Source: Nannocystis sp. RBIL2 (GTDB lineage Bacteria > Myxococcota_A > Polyangia > Nannocystales > Nannocystaceae). From it: a stretch of 64,000 nucleotides of DNA. Position numbers and translations under genes: made by a program. The notes under the pieces were generated by a model that did not search any database, was not told the origin of the DNA, and saw only the letters and a list, made by a program, of their open reading frames with translations. Shown one piece after another: positions 5,422 to 56,678 of this stretch; positions within the stretch are counted from its first letter, which is position 1; each line of letters opens with the position of its first letter. The stretch covers positions 652,311 to 716,310 of the forward strand of contig NZ_JAPNJW010000001.1 of assembly GCF_026626745.1 (NCBI RefSeq), given 5' to 3'.

Positions 5422-7304
5422 GTGTCCGAGCGCGACCGCTTCCTCGCCTTCGCCGCCCGGGCCGTGCCAGTCGCGTTCGGCGCCCGGCCGGCGCCCGGCG
5501 AGCTCGCCGCGCACTGGCGGGCCGCGACCCAGGCGATCGGCGCTCGCCTCGTCCTCGCCTGCGCGCGCGAGCGCCTCGTCGAATTCGACCTCCAGGACAT
5601 GTCCCTTCGCACATGTTCCTTGAGCCTCCCGCTGCGGCGGCGCCGGGCCTTCGAGCTGCACGCCGCCGACCTCGACGGCCCCGACCTCCCCGACCTCCCC
5701 GACCTCCTCCCGCGCCTCTTGCCCGCGCTCGCCCCCGCGGCTCGCGCCCGGATCGCGCGCGAGCTCGCCGACAGCCGCTGGAACCTCGCGCTCGCCCGCC
5801 TCGCCGCCGACCTGCGCCATCGGACATGCTCCGAAGGCCAGGCTTGGCCCGCCCCGCTCGACCCCGAGAACCTGGTCGTCGACGGCCACCCGTGGCACCC
5901 GATGAGCAAGACCCGGCTCGGCCTGCGCGCCTGGGAGAACCTGCGCCACGGCCCCGACCTCCTGGCCCAGGCGGCAGTCCACGCCGTCGACGTCGCCGCC
6001 GACCACGCCCAGCTGGCCGAGCCGGCCCTCTACGCCGACCTCGCGCGCGCCCTGTTCCCGGCCCCCCCGCCCGGCCTCGTCCGCCTGCCCGTCCACCCCC
6101 TCCAGCTGCGCCGCCTCCCGCGCCTGCTCGGCCCGCTGTGGGGCCGCGAGGTCCGTCCGGCCGGCCTGCCTCCGCTCCACGCGCGCGCCCTGCTCAGCCT
6201 GCGCACCGTCGCCCTCGTCGCGCCCGCGCTGCACCTCAAGCTCGCCGTCGACATCCACACCACCAGCGCGCGGCGCCAGGTCTCGCCCGCCTCGGTGCAC
6301 AACGGCCCGGCGATCGCCGCCCTCCTGGCCGCGATCCAGGCCGCCGACCCGCAGACCCGCCGCGGCCTGCAGATCCAGCCCGACCTCGCCGCCGCCGGCC
6401 TGCACCCCCGCCACGGCCCCGGCGCCGGCCAGCTCGGCGTCGTCCTCCGCCCCGACCCCGCCGCCCTCGCCCAAGAGCTCCACGCCGACCTCACCGCACC
6501 CGCCGACCCATCCGGCGCGACGCCGACCGCCCCCGGCACCGCGCCTGCCCCTGAGCACCTGTCCTCCGCGACATATCCCTCGGAACATGCCCCCGAGGAC
6601 CTGTCCCGTGCGACATATTTATTAGAGCATGTCCGATCGCGCACCCCGCAGCTGGTCGTCTGCGCCGCCCTCGGCGAGCGCCGGCCTGGGGGCGACCTCT
6701 TGTTGCGCGAGCTCGCCGCCGACTACCCCGGCGATCCGCGCGCGCGCCTCGCGGCCTTCTTCGCCGACTACCTCGACCTCCTCGTCCCCGCGGCCCTGCG
6801 CCTGCTCACCGCCCACGGCGTCGCCCTCGAGGCGCATCTACAAAACACCCTCCTCGTCCACGCCGGGCGCCCCTGCGGCTTCGTCGTCCGCGACCTCGGC
6901 GGAGTGCGGCTCCACCGCGGGCGGCTGGCCGCGGCCGGCCACGCCCCCGCGCTCGCGCCCGACTCCTTCACCTTGACCTCCGACCTCGCCGAGGCTCAGG
7001 GCAAGCTGTTACACACCCTCGTGCACGCCCACCTCGCGGCTGTGATCGGTTGGGTCGACGACGCCGGCGGCCCCGACCCCGACGCCCTGTGGCCCGCGGT
7101 GCGGCGGATCTGCCAGCGCGAGTGGGACCGCTGGGCCACCGATCCGGCGCTCGCGCGCGCGTGCGCCGACGATCGCGCGTTCTTCTTCGCGGCTACCTGC
7201 CGCAGCAAGGCGCTGCTGCGCATGCGCATCGACGAACGCGTCAGCGATTACGCCTATACCGAGGTCGCCAACGCGCTCGCCGAGGGGTACTCTTCCCCCG
7301 CCGC

Positions 7305-7308
<4 letters not shown>
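5422..7308 (+). CDS. IucA/IucC-family (NRPS-independent siderophore synthetase-like) protein
   Basis: Family hallmarks are present ([28 protein letters not shown]). The stop overlaps the next start as ATGA. Two in-frame insertions of the CATGYCC repeat lie inside the CDS, at 5595..5619 and 6553..6638. Confidence 0.7.
5595..5619 (+). repeat. CATGYCC-family, 2 units, in-frame in the IucA/IucC CDS
   Basis: GGACATGTCCCTTCGCACATGTTCC. Confidence 0.7.
6553..6638 (+). repeat. CATGYCC-family array, 6 units at exact 14-bp period, in-frame in the IucA/IucC CDS, with an AT-rich segment (CGACATATTTATTAGAGCATGTCC)
   Basis: Core positions fall at 6557/6570/6584/6598/6612/6626. Confidence 0.8.
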
Positions 7309-10266: not shown

Positions 10267-10358
10267 GGGCATGTCCCCGAGGACATCCCCGACCCGCGCG
10301 CCCCCCGCGATCACGCCTGAGCCTGCCTGGCGTTTGCGACATGTCCGGGAAGACAGCC
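10267..10358 (+). repeat. two CATGYCC-family sub-arrays (10267..10290 and 10337..10358) between nadE and pcm
   Basis: GGGCATGTCCCCGAGGACATCCCC and GCGACATGTCCGGGAAGACAGCC. Confidence 0.7.
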
Positions 10359-14867: not shown

Positions 14868-15989
<1,122 letters not shown>

Positions 15990-16085
15990 GCCTGCTGTCG
16001 CTCCGTACCTGTCCCCGAGCACCTGTCCCCGAGCACCTGTCCCCGAGCACCTGTCCCCGAGCACCTGTCCCCGACAACCTGCCCC
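15990..16085 (+). repeat. perfect tandem array (GAGCACCTGTCCCC) x4 plus 2 to 3 degenerate flanking units, in the gcvT-gcvH spacer
   Basis: Four identical 14-mers at 16017..16072; related units at 16005..16016 and 16073..16085. Confidence 0.9.
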
Positions 16086-16096
16086 GAAGTTTCACC

Positions 16097-16486
16097 ATGA
16101 GCAAGATCCCGAGCAACCTCCGCTACACCAAAGACCACGAGTGGGCCCGCCTCGAGGGCGACGGCACCGTCGTCGTCGGCATCACCGACTTCGCGGCCAA
16201 CACCCTCGGCGACATCACCTTCATCGACCTGCGGATCGCCCCCGGCGCCAACCTGACCGCCGGCGCTCTGTTCGGCACGGTCGACTCGGTCAAGTCCGTG
16301 AGCGAGCTGTACGCCCCGGTTGAGGGCGAGGTGGTCGAGGTCAACGGCGAGCTCGACGCCACGCCCGAGGACGTCAACACCGACTGCTACGGCGACGGCT
16401 GGATGGTCCGGATCCGTCCGACCGACGCGGCCGCGTTCGAGCGGCTGCTGACCGCCGAGCAGTACGAGGCCCTCCTCAAGGAGTGA
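16097..16486 (+). CDS. gcvH: glycine cleavage system H protein
   Basis: MSKIPSNLRYTKDHEWARLEG start, with the lipoyl-lysine motif SVKSVSELYAP. The start is trimmed from ORF 15638..16486. Confidence 0.9.
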   Translation: MSKIPSNLRYTKDHEWARLEGDGTVVVGITDFAANTLGDITFIDLRIAPGANLTAGALFGTVDSVKSVSELYAPVEGEVVEVNGELDATPEDVNTDCYGDGWMVRIRPTDAAAFERLLTAEQYEALLKE

Positions 16487-22352: not shown

Positions 22353-23447
22353 ATGCCGTCCGCGCTCCTCGCCGCAGTGCTCGCGTTCCAGGTGCCCCAG
22401 CCCCCGTCTGCCGGCGCGATCGAGTGGCAGGCGCCGGCGGGCTGCCCCGATCGCCGCGCGCTGGCCGGGGCGATCGCCGGCCGCCTCGGCCGCGAGCCCG
22501 CCGCCGACGAGGTCTCTCTGGTCGGGCGGGTCGAGCGGGACGGCGCCTCGCAGTACCACCTCGACCTGCGCCTCACCGTCGGCGGTCACGCCCAGACCCG
22601 GCGCCTCAGCGCTCGTCGCTGCGCCGCGCTGGTCGACGCCGCTGCGCTCCTGACCGCCCTCGCGCTCGACCCCACCGCCGCCGAGCGCGGCGGGCCGACC
22701 GATCTGGTCGCGCCGGAGGTCGAGTCCACGCCGACCGAGCCCGAGCCGCCTCCCGGCCCTGAGCCGGCCCCTGGCTCCGAACCCGCCCCGCCCGTCACCC
22801 TCGCCCCCGAGGCCGTCGTCGACGACCCTGCCGCGCCGCTCCAACCGCCCGAACCCGCGCCCGCGCCCGAGCCCGCCGTCGTCACCGCCGACGAGCCGCT
22901 CGCCCCGGCCCCGCCGCCGCGCAAGCGAGGTCCCGGCGCGCTGCTCCGCCTCTCGGCCGGCTTCGAGGTCGGCACCGTCCCCGCGCCCACCGCCGCGCTC
23001 GAGCTCGTCGCCGGCGTCCTGTGGCGGCGCGCTCGCCTCGAGTTCCACGGCGTCCACCTCGTCCCCCAGACCGAGGCGCGCCTGCCCAACGAGGTCCGCG
23101 TCTACCTGCTCGGCGGCGGCGCCCGCGGCTGCGCTCGCCTGTCGCGCGGCCGCTTCGAGTTCCCCCTGTGCGGCGGCGCCGAGCTCGGCGGCCTGCGTGG
23201 CCAGGGTCGCGGTCCGGGCGCGCGCGCGGCCACCGGCCTGTGGGCGGCGGTGCTCGTCTCGGCCGGCGCCACCTGGCGGTTTCACCGGCTGCTCGGCCTC
23301 AGCCTGGCCGCCCAGGGCCTCGTCCGCCTGGCCGCCCCGAGCTTCGACCTGGAGGACACCCCGGAGCCGGTCAACCTGTTCACCAGCGCGCCGGCGAGCC
23401 TGCGCCTGCTCCTCGGCCTCGAATTGCGCCTCGGAGACCCGCGGTGA
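22353..23447 (+). CDS. hypothetical Pro/Ala-rich protein
   Basis: ORF with MPSALLAAVLAF start; it has a central PEPAP-type low-complexity region and a C-terminal hydrophobic region. It is coding-like but has no recognisable domain. Confidence 0.4.
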   Translation: MPSALLAAVLAFQVPQPPSAGAIEWQAPAGCPDRRALAGAIAGRLGREPAADEVSLVGRVERDGASQYHLDLRLTVGGHAQTRRLSARRCAALVDAAALLTALALDPTAAERGGPTDLVAPEVESTPTEPEPPPGPEPAPGSEPAPPVTLAPEAVVDDPAAPLQPPEPAPAPEPAVVTADEPLAPAPPPRKRGPGALLRLSAGFEVGTVPAPTAALELVAGVLWRRARLEFHGVHLVPQTEARLPNEVRVYLLGGGARGCARLSRGRFEFPLCGGAELGGLRGQGRGPGARAATGLWAAVLVSAGATWRFHRLLGLSLAAQGLVRLAAPSFDLEDTPEPVNLFTSAPASLRLLLGLELRLGDPR

Positions 23448-23485
23448 CGGAAACCGTCTCGGCCGGGGACAGCCCCCACGGCCCC

Positions 23486-24979
23486 ATGCTGCTCGCCACC
23501 GACCGAGACGCGCGCTTTCGCGCCATCTACGACCGAGAGTTCCACTTCGTGTGGTCGGCCGCGAAGTACTTCGGCGTCCCCGTGGCCGCCCGCGACGACG
23601 TGGTCCAGGACGTCTTCCTCACCGCCTACCGCCGCTTCGACCAGGTCCACTACCAGGTCTCGGCGCGCGCCTGGCTGTACGGCGTCACCCGCCGCGTCGC
23701 CTCGCACTGGCACCGCGGCGTCGCCCGTCGGACCCGCCGGATCGCCGCCCTCGGCGACCTCACCGGCCACGTCGGCGAGGCCCCGCAGGAGCGCCACGAC
23801 GCCGCCCGCCTGCTCGAGCGCCTGCTCGCCGGCCTGCCTCGCGGCACCCGCGAGGTGTGGGAGCTGACCGAGCTGCTCGGCATGAGCGGCCCCGAGATCG
23901 CCGCCGAGCTCGAGCTGCCGCTCAACACCGTCTACTCGCGGCTCCGCCTCGCGCGCGCCCGCCTGCTCGAGCTGGCCGCCAGCCCCGAGCTGCTGGCCTC
24001 CGAGGTCGCCGAAGGCCGCCGCCGCGAGGCGCCGCCGGCCGACGCCGCCTCGCGCACCTGGGCCGTGATGGTCCCGCTGTTCGGGCACGGCAAGCTCGCC
24101 ACCGTGGCCGCCGCCTGGACCACCGCGCGCGCCGGCGTCATGACCACCCTCGTCGTCGCCGGCGCCACCACCGTCGTCGCGGTCGCCCCGCGCCAGGCCC
24201 CGGGCCGGGCCACCACCGCGCACGTCGAGGACCTGTCCGCAAAGCCATCTGCAGCTCGATCCAGCGGTGACATGTCCCGAGAGACAGCCTCTCTCCCGCC
24301 CGCCGGCATGTCCCGAGAGACAGCGACACTCCCGCCCCCCGACATGTCGCGAGAGACAGCCTCTCTCCCGCCCGCCGGCATGTCCCGAGAGACAGCCTCT
24401 CCCCCGCCCGCCGGCATGTCCCGAGAGACAGCCTCGCCCGCGATCGCCGTCACGTCTCGAGAGACAGCCTCGCTAGCGATCGCCGTCCCGCTCCAGTCCC
24501 ACGCCTCCCCGTTCTCGTTCGCCCACCTCCGCGCGCAGGTCGCCGGCGTGTGGACCCGCGCGACCGCCCCCCTGTCGCCGGGCCCGGCGGCCGACCTATC
24601 CCCGAGGACAGCCTCCCCCGCGCCCGCCGGCCGGGTGACGCGCCCGGCTTACGATCAGCTGCTGTCCCGAGAGACATCCGCGCGCTCGCCCGCCCGCGAC
24701 GACCTCGCCCTCGAGGTCGGCCTCCTCGACCGCGCCCGCGCCCGCCTCGACGCCCGCGACCCGGCAGGCGCCGCCCAGCTCCTCGACGCTCACGCGCGCC
24801 AGTTCCCGCGCGGCGCCCTCGTCGACGCCCGCGAGGCCGCCGCGGTCGAGCTCCTGTGCCTGCAAGGCCGCCCCGCCGACGCCGCGACCGCCGCCCTGCG
24901 CCTGGCCGCGCGCCTGCCCGACTCGGTGCTCGCCCGCCGCTTCGAGCGCTTCGTCTGCCCCGACGACGAGCCGCGCTGA
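23486..24979 (+). CDS. ECF sigma factor fused to (or read through into) a TM segment and a repeat-containing C-terminal domain
   Basis: Sigma-70 region 2 (DVVQDVFLTAYRRFDQ) and region 4 (GMSGPEIAAELELPLNTVYSRLRLARARL) are present. Then comes a TM-like stretch (VMVPLFGHGKLATVAAAWTTARAGVMTTLVVAGA). After that comes 6 x 12-aa tandem repeats MSRETASLPPAG, with no stop before 24979. Confidence 0.65.
   Translation: MLLATDRDARFRAIYDREFHFVWSAAKYFGVPVAARDDVVQDVFLTAYRRFDQVHYQVSARAWLYGVTRRVASHWHRGVARRTRRIAALGDLTGHVGEAPQERHDAARLLERLLAGLPRGTREVWELTELLGMSGPEIAAELELPLNTVYSRLRLARARLLELAASPELLASEVAEGRRREAPPADAASRTWAVMVPLFGHGKLATVAAAWTTARAGVMTTLVVAGATTVVAVAPRQAPGRATTAHVEDLSAKPSAARSSGDMSRETASLPPAGMSRETATLPPPDMSRETASLPPAGMSRETASPPPAGMSRETASPAIAVTSRETASLAIAVPLQSHASPFSFAHLRAQVAGVWTRATAPLSPGPAADLSPRTASPAPAGRVTRPAYDQLLSRETSARSPARDDLALEVGLLDRARARLDARDPAGAAQLLDAHARQFPRGALVDAREAAAVELLCLQGRPADAATAALRLAARLPDSVLARRFERFVCPDDEPR
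24272..24487 (+). repeat. 6 x 36-bp in-frame tandem repeats (ATGTCCCGAGAGACAGCCTCTCTCCCGCCCGCCGGC), each with a CATGTCCC core and a GAGAGacagcCTCTC hairpin
   Basis: Seen in the sequence. They encode a 6 x MSRETASLPPAG-like repeat in the ECF sigma CDS. Confidence 0.9.
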
Positions 24980-26987: not shown

Positions 26988-27050
26988 ACCATGCCCTCTC
27001 GGCCATGTCCTGGCAGACATGTCCCCGACGACATGTCGCCGAGGCCATCC
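26988..27050 (+). repeat. CATGYCC-family array, 5 units at exact 14-bp period
   Basis: CAT at 26990/27004/27018/27032/27046. Confidence 0.85.
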
Positions 27051-34536: not shown

Positions 34537-34676
34537 CCCGGCGGGCGCTCGCGCCGCCTCGATCGCTAGCGATCGCATCACTCCACGCCGAGTCGCGCGA
34601 TCGTCACGCATCCGCGTTCTTCGCGGCGCGCCCCGACGCTCACCGCTCGCACCCGGCTGCTAAGGTGGCCGCGCCG

Positions 34677-36366
<1,690 letters not shown>

Positions 36367-41102: not shown

Positions 41103-41186
41103 AGGACATGTCCTCATGGACATGCCCCCGAGGGCATGCCCGTACGAACATGCCCATGAGGCCATGTCCCTCAGGACACCTCACAG
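41103..41186 (+). repeat. CATGYCC-family array, 6 units at exact 14-bp period, between convergent genes
   Basis: CAT at 41107/41121/41135/41149/41163 and CAC at 41177. Confidence 0.9.
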
Positions 41187-44140: not shown

Positions 44141-44224
44141 CGAGCATGCCCCTCACGCCATGCCCCTCGTGCCATGTCCCTCGCGCCATGTCCCCGAGGA
44201 CATGCCCCGATCGACATGCCCTTC
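44141..44224 (+). repeat. CATGYCC-family array, 6 units at exact 14-bp period, between convergent genes
   Basis: CAT at 44145/44159/44173/44187/44201/44215. Confidence 0.9.
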
Positions 44225-44233
44225 AGGCCAGCC

Positions 44234-48146: not shown

Positions 48147-48220
48147 GGGACATGTCTTCCGCGACATGTCCCAAAGCACCTTGCCGCCGGGACATGTCCT
48201 CCACGACATGCCCGAGCGCC
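48147..48220 (+). repeat. CATGYCC-family array, 5 units at 14-bp period, between rlmE and the pseudogene
   Basis: CAT at 48151/48165/(CAC 48179)/48193/48207. Confidence 0.85.
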
Positions 48221-56072: not shown

Positions 56073-56678
56073 ATGAACATCGACCTCGCCAAATTTTTGT
56101 CCGTCGCCGCCCTCATGAGCCAGGGCGTCGCCACAGCCGGCTGCACGATCAACCTCGGCGGTCTCTCCGATACCAACATCGGCCCCGAGACGACCACGAC
56201 CGAGAGCACCGCCGGCACCACGGACGACACGACCAGCACCGGCACGGCGGGCGAGACGACCGACGGCACCGACACCGGCACCAGCGCGCCGACGACCACC
56301 GAAACCCCGACCAGCACCACCGAGGCCACCGCGGGCACCACCGAGGCCACCGCGGGCACCACCGGCGAGGGCTTCGTCTGCAGCGACGGTACCGCACTCG
56401 AGAACCCGGCGTGGGTCTGCGACGAGAACCCCGACTGTCCTGACGGCTCCGACGAGGTCAGCGGCTGCGGCCTCGAGGCCTTCACCTGCACCGACAAGAA
56501 GGAGATCCCCGCGACCTGGGCCTGCGACGAGGTCCCCGACTGCCTCGACAACTCCGACGAGGTCACCGGCTGCGGCCTCGAGGCCTTCCTCTGCACCAAC
56601 GGCACCGAGATCCCGGCGACCTGGAAGTGCGACATGGCCGACGACTGCCCCGACGGCGCCGACGAGGCCGACTGCTGA
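56073..56678 (+). CDS. lipoprotein with three LDL-receptor class A (LDLa) repeats
   Basis: Lipobox (ATAGC) and a Thr-rich linker, followed by 3 LDLa-like units (C.DG..IP..W.CD...DC.DGSDE). Confidence 0.65.
   Translation: MNIDLAKFLSVAALMSQGVATAGCTINLGGLSDTNIGPETTTTESTAGTTDDTTSTGTAGETTDGTDTGTSAPTTTETPTSTTEATAGTTEATAGTTGEGFVCSDGTALENPAWVCDENPDCPDGSDEVSGCGLEAFTCTDKKEIPATWACDEVPDCLDNSDEVTGCGLEAFLCTNGTEIPATWKCDMADDCPDGADEADC

Follow-up and report, generated by a model that had tools for sequence, protein, structure and literature searches.

A translated palindromic repeat and its in-frame 36-bp array in the linker of a putative membrane-anchored ECF sigma factor of Nannocystis

Short palindromic repeats that lie mostly between genes are known to have translated intragenic copies; such cases were described for the Rickettsia palindromic elements (RPEs), for the repetitive extragenic palindromic (REP) elements of the GTAG/CGTC families and for BRE (PMC3733652, PMC3184786). 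The RPEs situated in frame inside protein genes were reported by Ogata et al. 2000 (cited in PMC3184786), and the intragenic REP elements by Di Nocera et al. 2013 (PMC3733652). Known as well are in-frame coding minisatellites (variable number tandem repeats, VNTRs) of bacterial envelope proteins and repeats of the MIRU type (PMC3184786). Here we analyze a sigma-factor gene of Nannocystis sp. RBIL2 that carries six in-frame tandem units of 36 bp. The gene is located in a stretch of 64,000 nucleotides, called the window below (positions 652,311 to 716,310 of contig NZ_JAPNJW010000001.1, G+C content 72.5%). All coordinates are given within the window, on its plus strand unless stated otherwise.

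Sigma factors of the extracytoplasmic function (ECF) type with C-terminal extensions form the second group of related systems. Sigma/anti-sigma fusions with an extension that contains a transmembrane helix include IutY of Pseudomonas putida (ECF243), SCO4117 (ECF52) and members of ECF48 and ECF53; for these fusions, proteolysis was either demonstrated or proposed as the way of activation (PMC8999054, PMC5826349). Among the myxobacterial groups, C-terminal extensions were reported for ECF220 (characterized by 'transmembrane proteins in +1 and -1'), ECF270 and ECF276 (PMC7826278, PMC8999054); the accessible part of the text on these groups has no mention of repeats in the extension. The ECF42 sigma factors have C-terminal extensions that contain tetratricopeptide repeats (TPRs) (PMC7826278).

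We consider it probable that the 36-bp array in the Nannocystis gene is a translated, phase-restricted REP-like element which slippage amplified in a one-component ECF sigma factor, within its disordered tether in the periplasm. What the data show is how the gene is built, that the motif originates at the DNA level and keeps one codon phase, and that copy number, period and length vary from genome to genome.

The sigma-factor gene (23444..24979), delineated with the help of a frame plot of the G+C content at third codon positions (GC3), codes for 511 aa if translated from the GTG at 23444 and for 497 aa from the ATG at 23486. Its product is 100% identical to the Nannocystis sp. RBIL2 proteins WP_276604502.1 (497 aa) and WP_267701868.1 (511 aa). 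Sigma-70 region 2 was found at aa 29-95 (23528..23728; PF04542, E = 1.2e-6, 28.6 bits with the gathering cut-off 24), and region 4, Sigma70_r4_2, at aa 122-174 (23807..23965; PF08281, E = 8e-12, 45 bits, cut-off 25.7). The gap between the two matches is only ~26 aa, and neither Sigma70_r1 nor Sigma70_r3 had a Pfam match at E <= 1. The protein matched also PF07638 in Pfam (23.9 bits, cut-off 21.1) and the NCBIfam model TIGR02937, sigma70-ECF (62.5 bits vs the cut-off 42.9). With sigma2 and sigma4 present and sigma1 and sigma3 absent, it is an ECF (group 4) member of the sigma-70 family. This agrees with the original prediction, made from the sequence alone, of an ECF-type gene with sigma-70 regions 2 and 4.

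Region 4 is followed by two conserved juxtamembrane helices, aa 181-213 (23984..24082), seen as H181-195 and H199-213 in an AlphaFold2 model for which an alignment of 46 sequences was used as input. Residues R204, W206 and P211 of this segment are invariant in the alignments of 15 and of 46 sequences. A single transmembrane helix is predicted at aa 230-248 (AGVMTTLVVAGATTVVAVA; 24131..24187), which is the sole 19-aa segment with a Kyte-Doolittle value above 1.6 (it reaches 1.91) and is situated inside the AlphaFold2 helix 218-246. This hydrophobic segment precedes the array, and the repeats were thus correctly placed downstream of a transmembrane-like segment in the original prediction. All repeat copies fall within a linker rich in Ala, Pro, Ser and Thr, aa 249-416 (24188..24691; A 20%, P 14%, S 14%), that is predicted to be disordered, with the predicted local distance difference test score (pLDDT) below 50 over aa 247-414. 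The model was confident for the sigma domain and very confident for the helical C-terminal domain, aa 417-498 (24692..24937; pLDDT 94-98). Modelled by itself, the C-terminal domain is a five-helix TPR-like module (pLDDT 92), in which C472 and C505 are invariant among 46 relatives. The best neighbour found by Foldseek in the PDB was the TPR domain of YbgF/CpoB (2xev, TM-score 0.67, root-mean-square deviation 2.0), followed by BamD and LpoP. These are periplasmic TPR proteins, with the Foldseek E-values all weak (at least 0.095). We call the modelled domain 'TPR-like' on the basis of the probability, the TM-score and the helix-hairpin pattern. The sigma domain has to be in the cytoplasm; with a single transmembrane helix, this would put the linker and the TPR-like domain in the periplasm.

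Both in RBIL2 and in nine further assemblies or metagenome contigs, the ORF (open reading frame) runs unbroken through the whole protein, from the sigma part to the TPR-like one. Therefore, the sigma domain, the transmembrane segment, the repeats and the C-terminal domain make up one polypeptide, as was anticipated. The orthologues came from N. pusilla (two strains), N. exedens, N. punicea, N. bainbridge, N. radixulma, strain SCPEA4 and several metagenome contigs. The linkers of the relatives measure 63-170 aa, their indels are without exception multiples of three, and the conserved C-terminal domain stays in frame.

In some N. pusilla sequences the gene is interrupted. The orthologue in N. 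pusilla Na p29 (L001 6001-7365, protein P0008) has a frameshift in the C-terminal domain, outside the array; P0124 is an intact version of the L001-type protein. The orthologue in N. pusilla GCA_049060185.1 (L016 4001-5450) is split into several small ORFs, again with the breaks outside the array. The neighbour genes in L016 are split too, thus an assembly error is likely, more so than pseudogenisation.

The general layout, with an ECF core followed by a C-terminal extension that has a transmembrane helix and an extracytoplasmic part, is the one of the IutY and ECF52 fusions. SCO4117 has a Pro-rich periplasmic region as well, located before its sensor domain. As in the sigma/anti-sigma fusions, there is no separate anti-sigma gene evident at the Nannocystis locus. 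Unlike these fusions, however, the Nannocystis protein has no detectable FecR-like or zinc-finger anti-sigma (ZAS) domain. No Pfam or NCBIfam family of anti-sigma domains (ASD, ZAS or FecR_N) matched it at E <= 1, and the distance from sigma4 to the transmembrane helix is only ~45 aa, enough to hold two short helices. It is possible that the juxtamembrane two-helix segment is a short anti-sigma-like segment, and a divergent short ASD may be present between sigma4 and the transmembrane helix. In contrast to IutY and SCO4117, the sensor domain is a TPR-like module of ~85 aa, the taxon is Myxococcota, and activation by proteolysis is suggested by analogy. A C-terminal extension and conserved uncharacterised neighbour genes are shared with the ECF220-type myxobacterial groups, a comparison made by description only. 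The similarity to ECF42 is in the TPR-type helical repeat fused C-terminally to the ECF core. The ECF42 extensions are cytoplasmic and long and are not known to contain a transmembrane helix, whereas the Nannocystis TPR-like domain is set off from the core by a transmembrane helix and a disordered linker.

Each of the six tandem units (24272..24487) opens with the core of the element, (C)ATGTCCCGAGAGACAGCC, which is read as M-S-R-E-T-A, and the first copy is positioned ~30 codons past the transmembrane helix. Tandem Repeats Finder reported the interval 24271-24471 with period 36, 5.6 copies, 87% matches, no indels and a score of 297; a repeat search extended the array to six copies at exact 36-nt spacing from 24272 to 24487 and located two dispersed copies, at 24597 and 24663. 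Head-to-tail units with a length multiple of three inside an ORF (36 bp x 6, no indels) are what characterizes a coding VNTR or minisatellite. The translations of the units are, in order, MSRETASLPPAG, MSRETATLPPPD, MSRETASLPPAG, MSRETASPPPAG, MSRETASPAIAV and TSRETASLAIAV. The array was originally described as six identical MSRETASLPPAG units; instead, we found five different peptides among the six units, with 25-35 of 36 nt identical between pairs of units. The claim that all units share one core holds for the exact sequence CATGTCCC in four of the six units, and does not hold in this exact form for the other two. Similarly, the GAGAG-ACAGC-CTCTC hairpin assigned to every unit can be drawn in units 1, 3 and 4 and not in the others. 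The predicted folding energy of a single 36-bp unit was -9.5 kcal/mol, no better than that of shuffled sequences (z = -0.85), with z = -2.5 for the whole array.

Besides the array, the linker contains isolated copies of the core. A decayed first copy, GAC CTG TCC GCA AAG CCA (24230..24247, 'DLSAKP'), was recognized in the DNA alignment. The same position is intact in other species, with GACCTGTCCGCAAAGACAGCT in L008 and GACCTGTCCGCGAGGACAGCC in L001. A dispersed copy, GAC CTA TCC CCG AGG ACA GCC (24593..24613, 'DLSPRTA'), has positional orthologues in N. pusilla, N. exedens and N. punicea. Another one, CTG CTG TCC CGA GAG ACA TCC (24659..24679, 'LLSRETS'), is located 12 aa before the TPR-like domain, and distant relatives (L018 and L019) have a perfect CTGTCC-N4-GGACAG at the equivalent place.

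At the protein level, the repeats appear as the peptide motif [L/M]-S-x-[E/G/R]-T-[A/S], present in 1-8 copies in the linker of 14 out of 14 close orthologues. Most paralogues with the same architecture have no such motif. We made a census of codons in 44 units from 10 loci, with the units defined by peptide only. Threonine was coded by ACA in 40 of the 44 units and serine by TCC in 38 of 44; leucine was coded by CTG in 21 cases out of 22 and never by CTC, while the preceding codon was usually GAC. On the other hand, in the well-supported genes of the window ACA makes up 3.7% of the Thr codons and TCC 13% of the Ser codons, and CTC is about as common as CTG. The coding units have the consensus GAC-(A/C)TG-TCC-NNN-GRG-ACA-KCC, which is TGTCC-N4-GGACA or, loosely, TGTC-N6-GACA. 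The conserved residues are those of the palindrome-arm codons, while the variable residues are those of the centre codons. Because of the rare codons (ACA, TCC) and the fixed codon phase, the consensus is best read as one of DNA, with the 'MSRETA' motif being the translation of the DNA element TGTCC-N4-GGACA, a relation missed in the original prediction. As a control, in ~18,000 codons of the other predicted genes of the window there was one match to [LM]Sx[EGRQ]T[AS], also encoded by the element.

The codon phase of the element was the same throughout. For all 38 TGTC-N6-GACA sites in the sigma-family genes (13 loci), the T of TGTC was at codon position 2. The same phase was observed in intragenic copies of the window outside the sigma gene, located in a siderophore synthetase gene and in ORFs 34665-35375 and 1-693. 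Translation in the two unused phases would give C-P-x-G-(H/Q) or x-V-(P/S)-x-x-D, and we infer that loops and linkers can take up the element harmlessly only as L/M-S...T-A.

In the siderophore synthetase gene (5422-7308, IucA/IucC-FhuF type), two in-frame element copies at 6560-6615 are 42 nt apart. They are located between the IucA_IucC and FhuF domains, beside the AT-rich TATTTATTAGAG; GC3 falls locally, and the frame continues. The gene 34665-35375, coding for a probable membrane protein, has a single in-frame copy at 35122-35135, read as LSSGTA. In the minus-strand ORF 1-693, coding for a CAP-domain protein, the single in-frame copy at 250-263 is read as MSEGTW.

The element is far more frequent in the window than expected. 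The sequence CATGTCCC was observed 21 times versus 1.8 expected, a number reached in none of 100 shuffles. The loose pattern TGTC-N6-GACA had 27 sites (0.58 expected) and the strict pattern TGTCC-N4-GGACA 11 sites (0.06 expected). Only six of the 27 loose sites are in the sigma gene, and at least 14 of the remaining 21 are clearly intergenic. The intergenic copies are nearly always situated 5-90 nt past a stop codon, between unidirectional or convergent genes. Many of them make arrays with a 14-nt period (e.g. 16007-16087, 44145-44230, 27006-27045 and 48147-48210), in which units such as CATGTCCCnnnnGA or CACCTGTCCCCGAG begin with CATG or CCTG; members of the family were seen also at 248-274, 41109-41180 and 10270-10355. 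Short gaps between genes are filled by the family; the array 16007-16087, made of direct repeats only, takes up most of the gap between the stop at 15989 and the start at 16097. All the Nannocystis loci retrieved have the element, at 5-13 copies per 13 kb, and so does a metagenome-assembled genome of Nannocystaceae. The loci L004-L007, where more distant versions of the sigma factor are encoded in Polyangiaceae, Myxococcaceae, Sphingomonas and Mycobacterium, are devoid of it. Extrapolated from the density in the window, the ~12-Mb Nannocystis genome would hold roughly 5,000 copies. Full-text literature searches returned no description of the Nannocystis repeat family with the 14-nt period, and an Rfam scan of the window matched no family. 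The strand distribution of CATGTCCC was biased (16 plus vs 5 minus, or 12 vs 5 without the sigma-gene array) independently of the direction of neighbouring genes, which could reflect replication orientation or chance.

A stable stem-loop of single-stranded DNA or RNA, as expected for REP elements, was predicted for a part of the copies only. Some intergenic copies did fold better than shuffled sequences (z = -3.1, -2.4 and -2.0). Conversely, the array 16007-16087 had z = +0.72 and the single coding units z from -0.26 to -1.7. The bases flanking the arms do not co-vary: a hand tally of the window sites gave A..T 11, C..T 6 and C..G 2. Since the coding units fold about as well as shuffles and the flanks show no co-variation, no RNA structure is claimed.

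With the REP and RPE families, the Nannocystis element has in common that it is short, palindromic, high-copy and lineage-specific and that most of its copies come after ORFs, where the adjacent genes are unidirectional or convergent. A high-copy, short, imperfect palindrome found mostly in intergenic DNA near the 3' ends of genes (27 sites versus 0.58 expected in 64 kb) is what defines REPs and REPINs; the GTAG or CGTC end tag and the length of 20-40 nt were not found. As in REPs and RPEs, a minority of the copies is translated in frame in loops and linkers of otherwise normal proteins, and clusters of copies can encode tens of residues. Unlike the REPs (20-40 bp) and the RPEs (100-150 bp), the Nannocystis element has a core of 14 bp and a tandem period of 14 nt, and, in contrast to REPs, its units have no GTAG or CGTC tag. 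Also unlike in these families, the intragenic copies were locally amplified into a coding minisatellite and persist, always in one phase, in a single gene family throughout the genus. Within the 64-kb window, a part of the ~12-Mb genome for which no census of such genes was made, we came across no RAYT (Y1 transposase) gene.

We also scanned metagenomes with the 19-mer CATGTCCCGAGAGACAGCC, which gave 10 contigs; each of these has one copy, the contexts are unrelated, and some of the copies are at gene starts. Among the contigs from other high-GC organisms, L023 (615-650) and L028 (2915-2950) have the 19-mer embedded in a perfect palindrome of 22 nt, CTCTCGGGACATGTCCCGAGAG, where a gene probably starts (MSRETA...), and in L021 (4568-4586) a transmembrane-like segment precedes the 19-mer in a 581-aa ORF.

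The arrays differ between genomes in copy number and in period. About six 36-bp units are present in the window and in L016, a close strain with an error-prone assembly; three are present in the N. pusilla-type loci L008, L001 and L015, and N. exedens and N. punicea have two copies at the array position, the number of tandem units being two or fewer in the other species. The period is 36 bp in the window, 39 bp in L013 and 27 bp (two units) in N. bainbridge (L010). The spacers are homogenised within arrays and different between arrays, e.g. GCCTCTCYCCCGCCCGCCGG in the window versus GCCAMGCCTTCGYCCGACGA in L008, despite 95% identity of these two loci at the 4-fold sites of the flanking domains. 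Synonymous divergence within Nannocystis is only 5-16%. The suggestion that the region is variable in length was borne out, as copy number (1-8), period (27, 36 or 39 bp) and linker length (63-170 aa) differ among strains and species. Copy number is thus not invariant in homologues, while the motif itself is common to all orthologues. Also confirmed, by the 36-, 39- and 27-bp arrays, was the idea that the repeat family can seed larger periodic units. The Nannocystis array is similar to VNTR and MIRU loci in its unit (a multiple of 3), strain-dependent copy number and units homogenised within the array; it differs from them in being seeded by a genome-wide palindromic element and in residing in the gene of a transcription factor rather than a surface antigen.

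The 39-bp array of L013 (1465-1780, protein P0049) was observed in a metagenome sequence with 44% identity to the sigma factor. It is a coding array of at least six units, KMSVGT(A/S)xEVAAN, with an ATGTCC-N4-GGACA core, and it is an independent amplification.

The explanation that we favor can be put as follows. A one-component, membrane-anchored ECF sigma factor would consist of cytoplasmic sigma2-sigma4, the two-helix segment, one transmembrane helix, the disordered linker and the TPR-like domain. The repeat core would be a copy of a Nannocystis-wide 14-bp palindrome, usually GAC-A/CTG-TCC-NNN-GRG-ACA-KCC in genes and normally arrayed downstream of them, that is tolerated in coding DNA in one phase only, with the reading [L/M]-S-x-x-T-[A/S]. 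Replication slippage or unequal recombination between neighbouring in-phase cores may then duplicate or delete blocks made of a core and a spacer. These blocks would always be multiples of three because the cores share the codon phase. The outcome would be lineage-specific arrays, such as the six 36-bp units of the window, and a linker of variable length. The main consequence is presumably the tether length and not a specific function of the peptide. The sigma factor itself may be activated by proteolytic release, in analogy with the IutY-type fusions.

Several observations weigh against this explanation or narrow it. The locus L013 is saturated at 4-fold sites with respect to the window (42% identity) and yet retains TCC and ACA. 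In the distant relatives L018 and L019 (~50-55% protein identity), one perfect CTGTCC-N4-GGACAG is kept ~12-14 residues ahead of the TPR-like domain; the centres are different. If the cores were purely neutral passengers, a drift to ACC or ACG would be expected; therefore, some selection at the nucleotide level, or gene conversion, is likely to act on the cores, and our explanation leaves it unaccounted for. Decayed copies were observed as well, at 24230 in the window, in L009 (CTG GCG CCA GAG ACC TCG) and in L001 (ATC TCG CGG GAG ACG), hence the constraint on the cores is not uniform. Tandem copies are not independent, thus the count of 40 ACA codons out of 44 overstates the number of events. 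Finally, the metagenome contigs with CATGTCCCGAGAGACAGCC had no arrays and hence gave no population-level data on copy number.

The retention of the cores could mean that the element codes twice, as protein and as a functional nucleic-acid signal, which we regard as unlikely. A factor that binds TGTCC-N4-GGACA genome-wide would then act on the sigma gene as well, through transcription elongation or termination, mRNA stability or the speed of translation past the transmembrane helix, and the copy number would tune sigma expression. This would fit the rare codons (ACA, TCC, often CGA) kept in lineages with saturated synonymous sites, the conserved arms around a variable 4-nt centre, and the distance of ~30 codons from the transmembrane helix to the first copy. 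The intergenic copies right after gene ends are also reminiscent of REP-type RNA or terminator elements (PMC3733652). However, the single coding units fold no better than shuffled sequence, the direct repeats of 16007-16087 do not fold, the arm-flanking bases do not co-vary, no Rfam family matches, and several orthologous copies decayed toward common codons or changed residues. Within Nannocystis, moreover, with a synonymous divergence of only 5-16%, much of the similarity of the cores is explained by common descent. We know of no factor that binds the element. The still more specific proposal, that the cores are under purifying selection as nucleic acid for a Nannocystaceae-specific factor bound at thousands of gene ends and also inside the sigma family, is a little less likely again. 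If the signal were real, it might pause or terminate transcription or slow down translation after the transmembrane helix, with the number of cores setting the amount of the full-length sensor-sigma protein. We find it rather doubtful that selection acts on the peptide itself, i.e. that [L/M]-S-x-E/G-T-A/S is a short linear motif of the periplasmic linker (for instance, a site of cleavage by a site-1 protease, of glycosylation or of docking to the upstream partner protein) whose copies tune signalling sensitivity. All 14 close orthologues indeed have the residues L, S, T and A/S in 1-8 copies, never outside the linker and in only one of three reading phases, and known sigma/anti-sigma fusions are activated by periplasmic proteolysis (PMC8999054). 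Still, the conserved residues are exactly those of the palindrome arms and the variable ones those of the centre, and the synonymous positions are as conserved as the non-synonymous ones. Moreover, the same peptide appears in the unrelated siderophore synthetase loop and membrane protein only where the element is present, and most paralogues of the same architecture do without it.

Two further explanations have hardly any probability. One could see a phase-variable contingency locus, with slippage toggling the sigma factor on and off, in a tandem repeat that is situated inside a regulatory gene and has a strain-dependent copy number. Such toggling would be extremely improbable here. The 36-bp units preserve the frame at every change, so the array cannot switch the gene on or off, and all orthologues are in frame through the array. 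The units, 69-97% identical, are also far less slippery than homopolymers or short simple sequence repeats, and both the fragmentation in L016 and the C-terminal frameshift in L001 are outside the array. The other explanation is an artefact: a sigma gene that came to read into an independent gene downstream after the loss of a stop codon or through a frameshift, or a mis-assembled repeat. A trace of this could be seen in GC3, which in the frame of the ORF drops from 0.97-1.0 before the array to 0.62-0.80 within it. The drop, however, is accounted for by the A-ending codons of the element itself, and the same frame goes on at GC3 of 0.88-0.95 past the array. At least nine other independent sources, assemblies and metagenome contigs, keep one ORF despite very different linker lengths, and the C-terminal domain, always fused, has neither a start signal nor a signal peptide of its own. 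Given the orthologues, we discarded the artefact as very improbable.

The gene directly upstream (22353..23447 in the ORF list) codes for a conserved protein of 364 aa with no Pfam or NCBIfam family. Its stop codon overlaps the GTG start of the sigma gene (GTGA in the window), and a 4-nt overlap is found in several genomes. The protein has a Pro/Glu-rich middle part (PEPPPGPEPAPGSEPAPP) and a strand-rich C-terminal half that ends with LLGLELRLGDPR. A gene of 354-365 aa without a Pfam family immediately precedes the sigma gene in all orthologues (seen in L008-L012, L015 and L017); thus the gene at position -1 is conserved, unlike the gene at +1. The TPR-like domain may have the 364-aa protein as its partner in the outer membrane or the periplasm.

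Elsewhere in the window, at 56412-56672, a 105-bp tandem repeat (2.4 copies, 80% matches) reads on the plus strand as modules similar to low-density lipoprotein (LDL) receptor class A (W.CD..PDC.DGSDE...C). A crude GC3 map puts a minus-strand gene there, at odds with this reading.

Translated junk-like repeat DNA in a variable sigma-factor linker is a tidy case of known phenomena and not a new kind of system. It offers a clean and datable example of an intergenic repeat family turning into protein sequence: the element would be accepted in one phase, land in disordered linkers and loops, and then drive its own in-frame amplification. As a result, the length of the tether of a membrane-bound sigma factor would change in evolution at a much higher rate than the other parts of the protein. 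In annotation, the 'MSRETA/LSxETA' peptides of Nannocystis should be read as translated repeat DNA and not as a protein motif. For genome biology, the locus points to a very abundant repeat family with the 14-nt period in Nannocystis. The natural alleles with linkers of 63-170 aa could be used for asking whether tether length matters in one-component ECF sigma factors.

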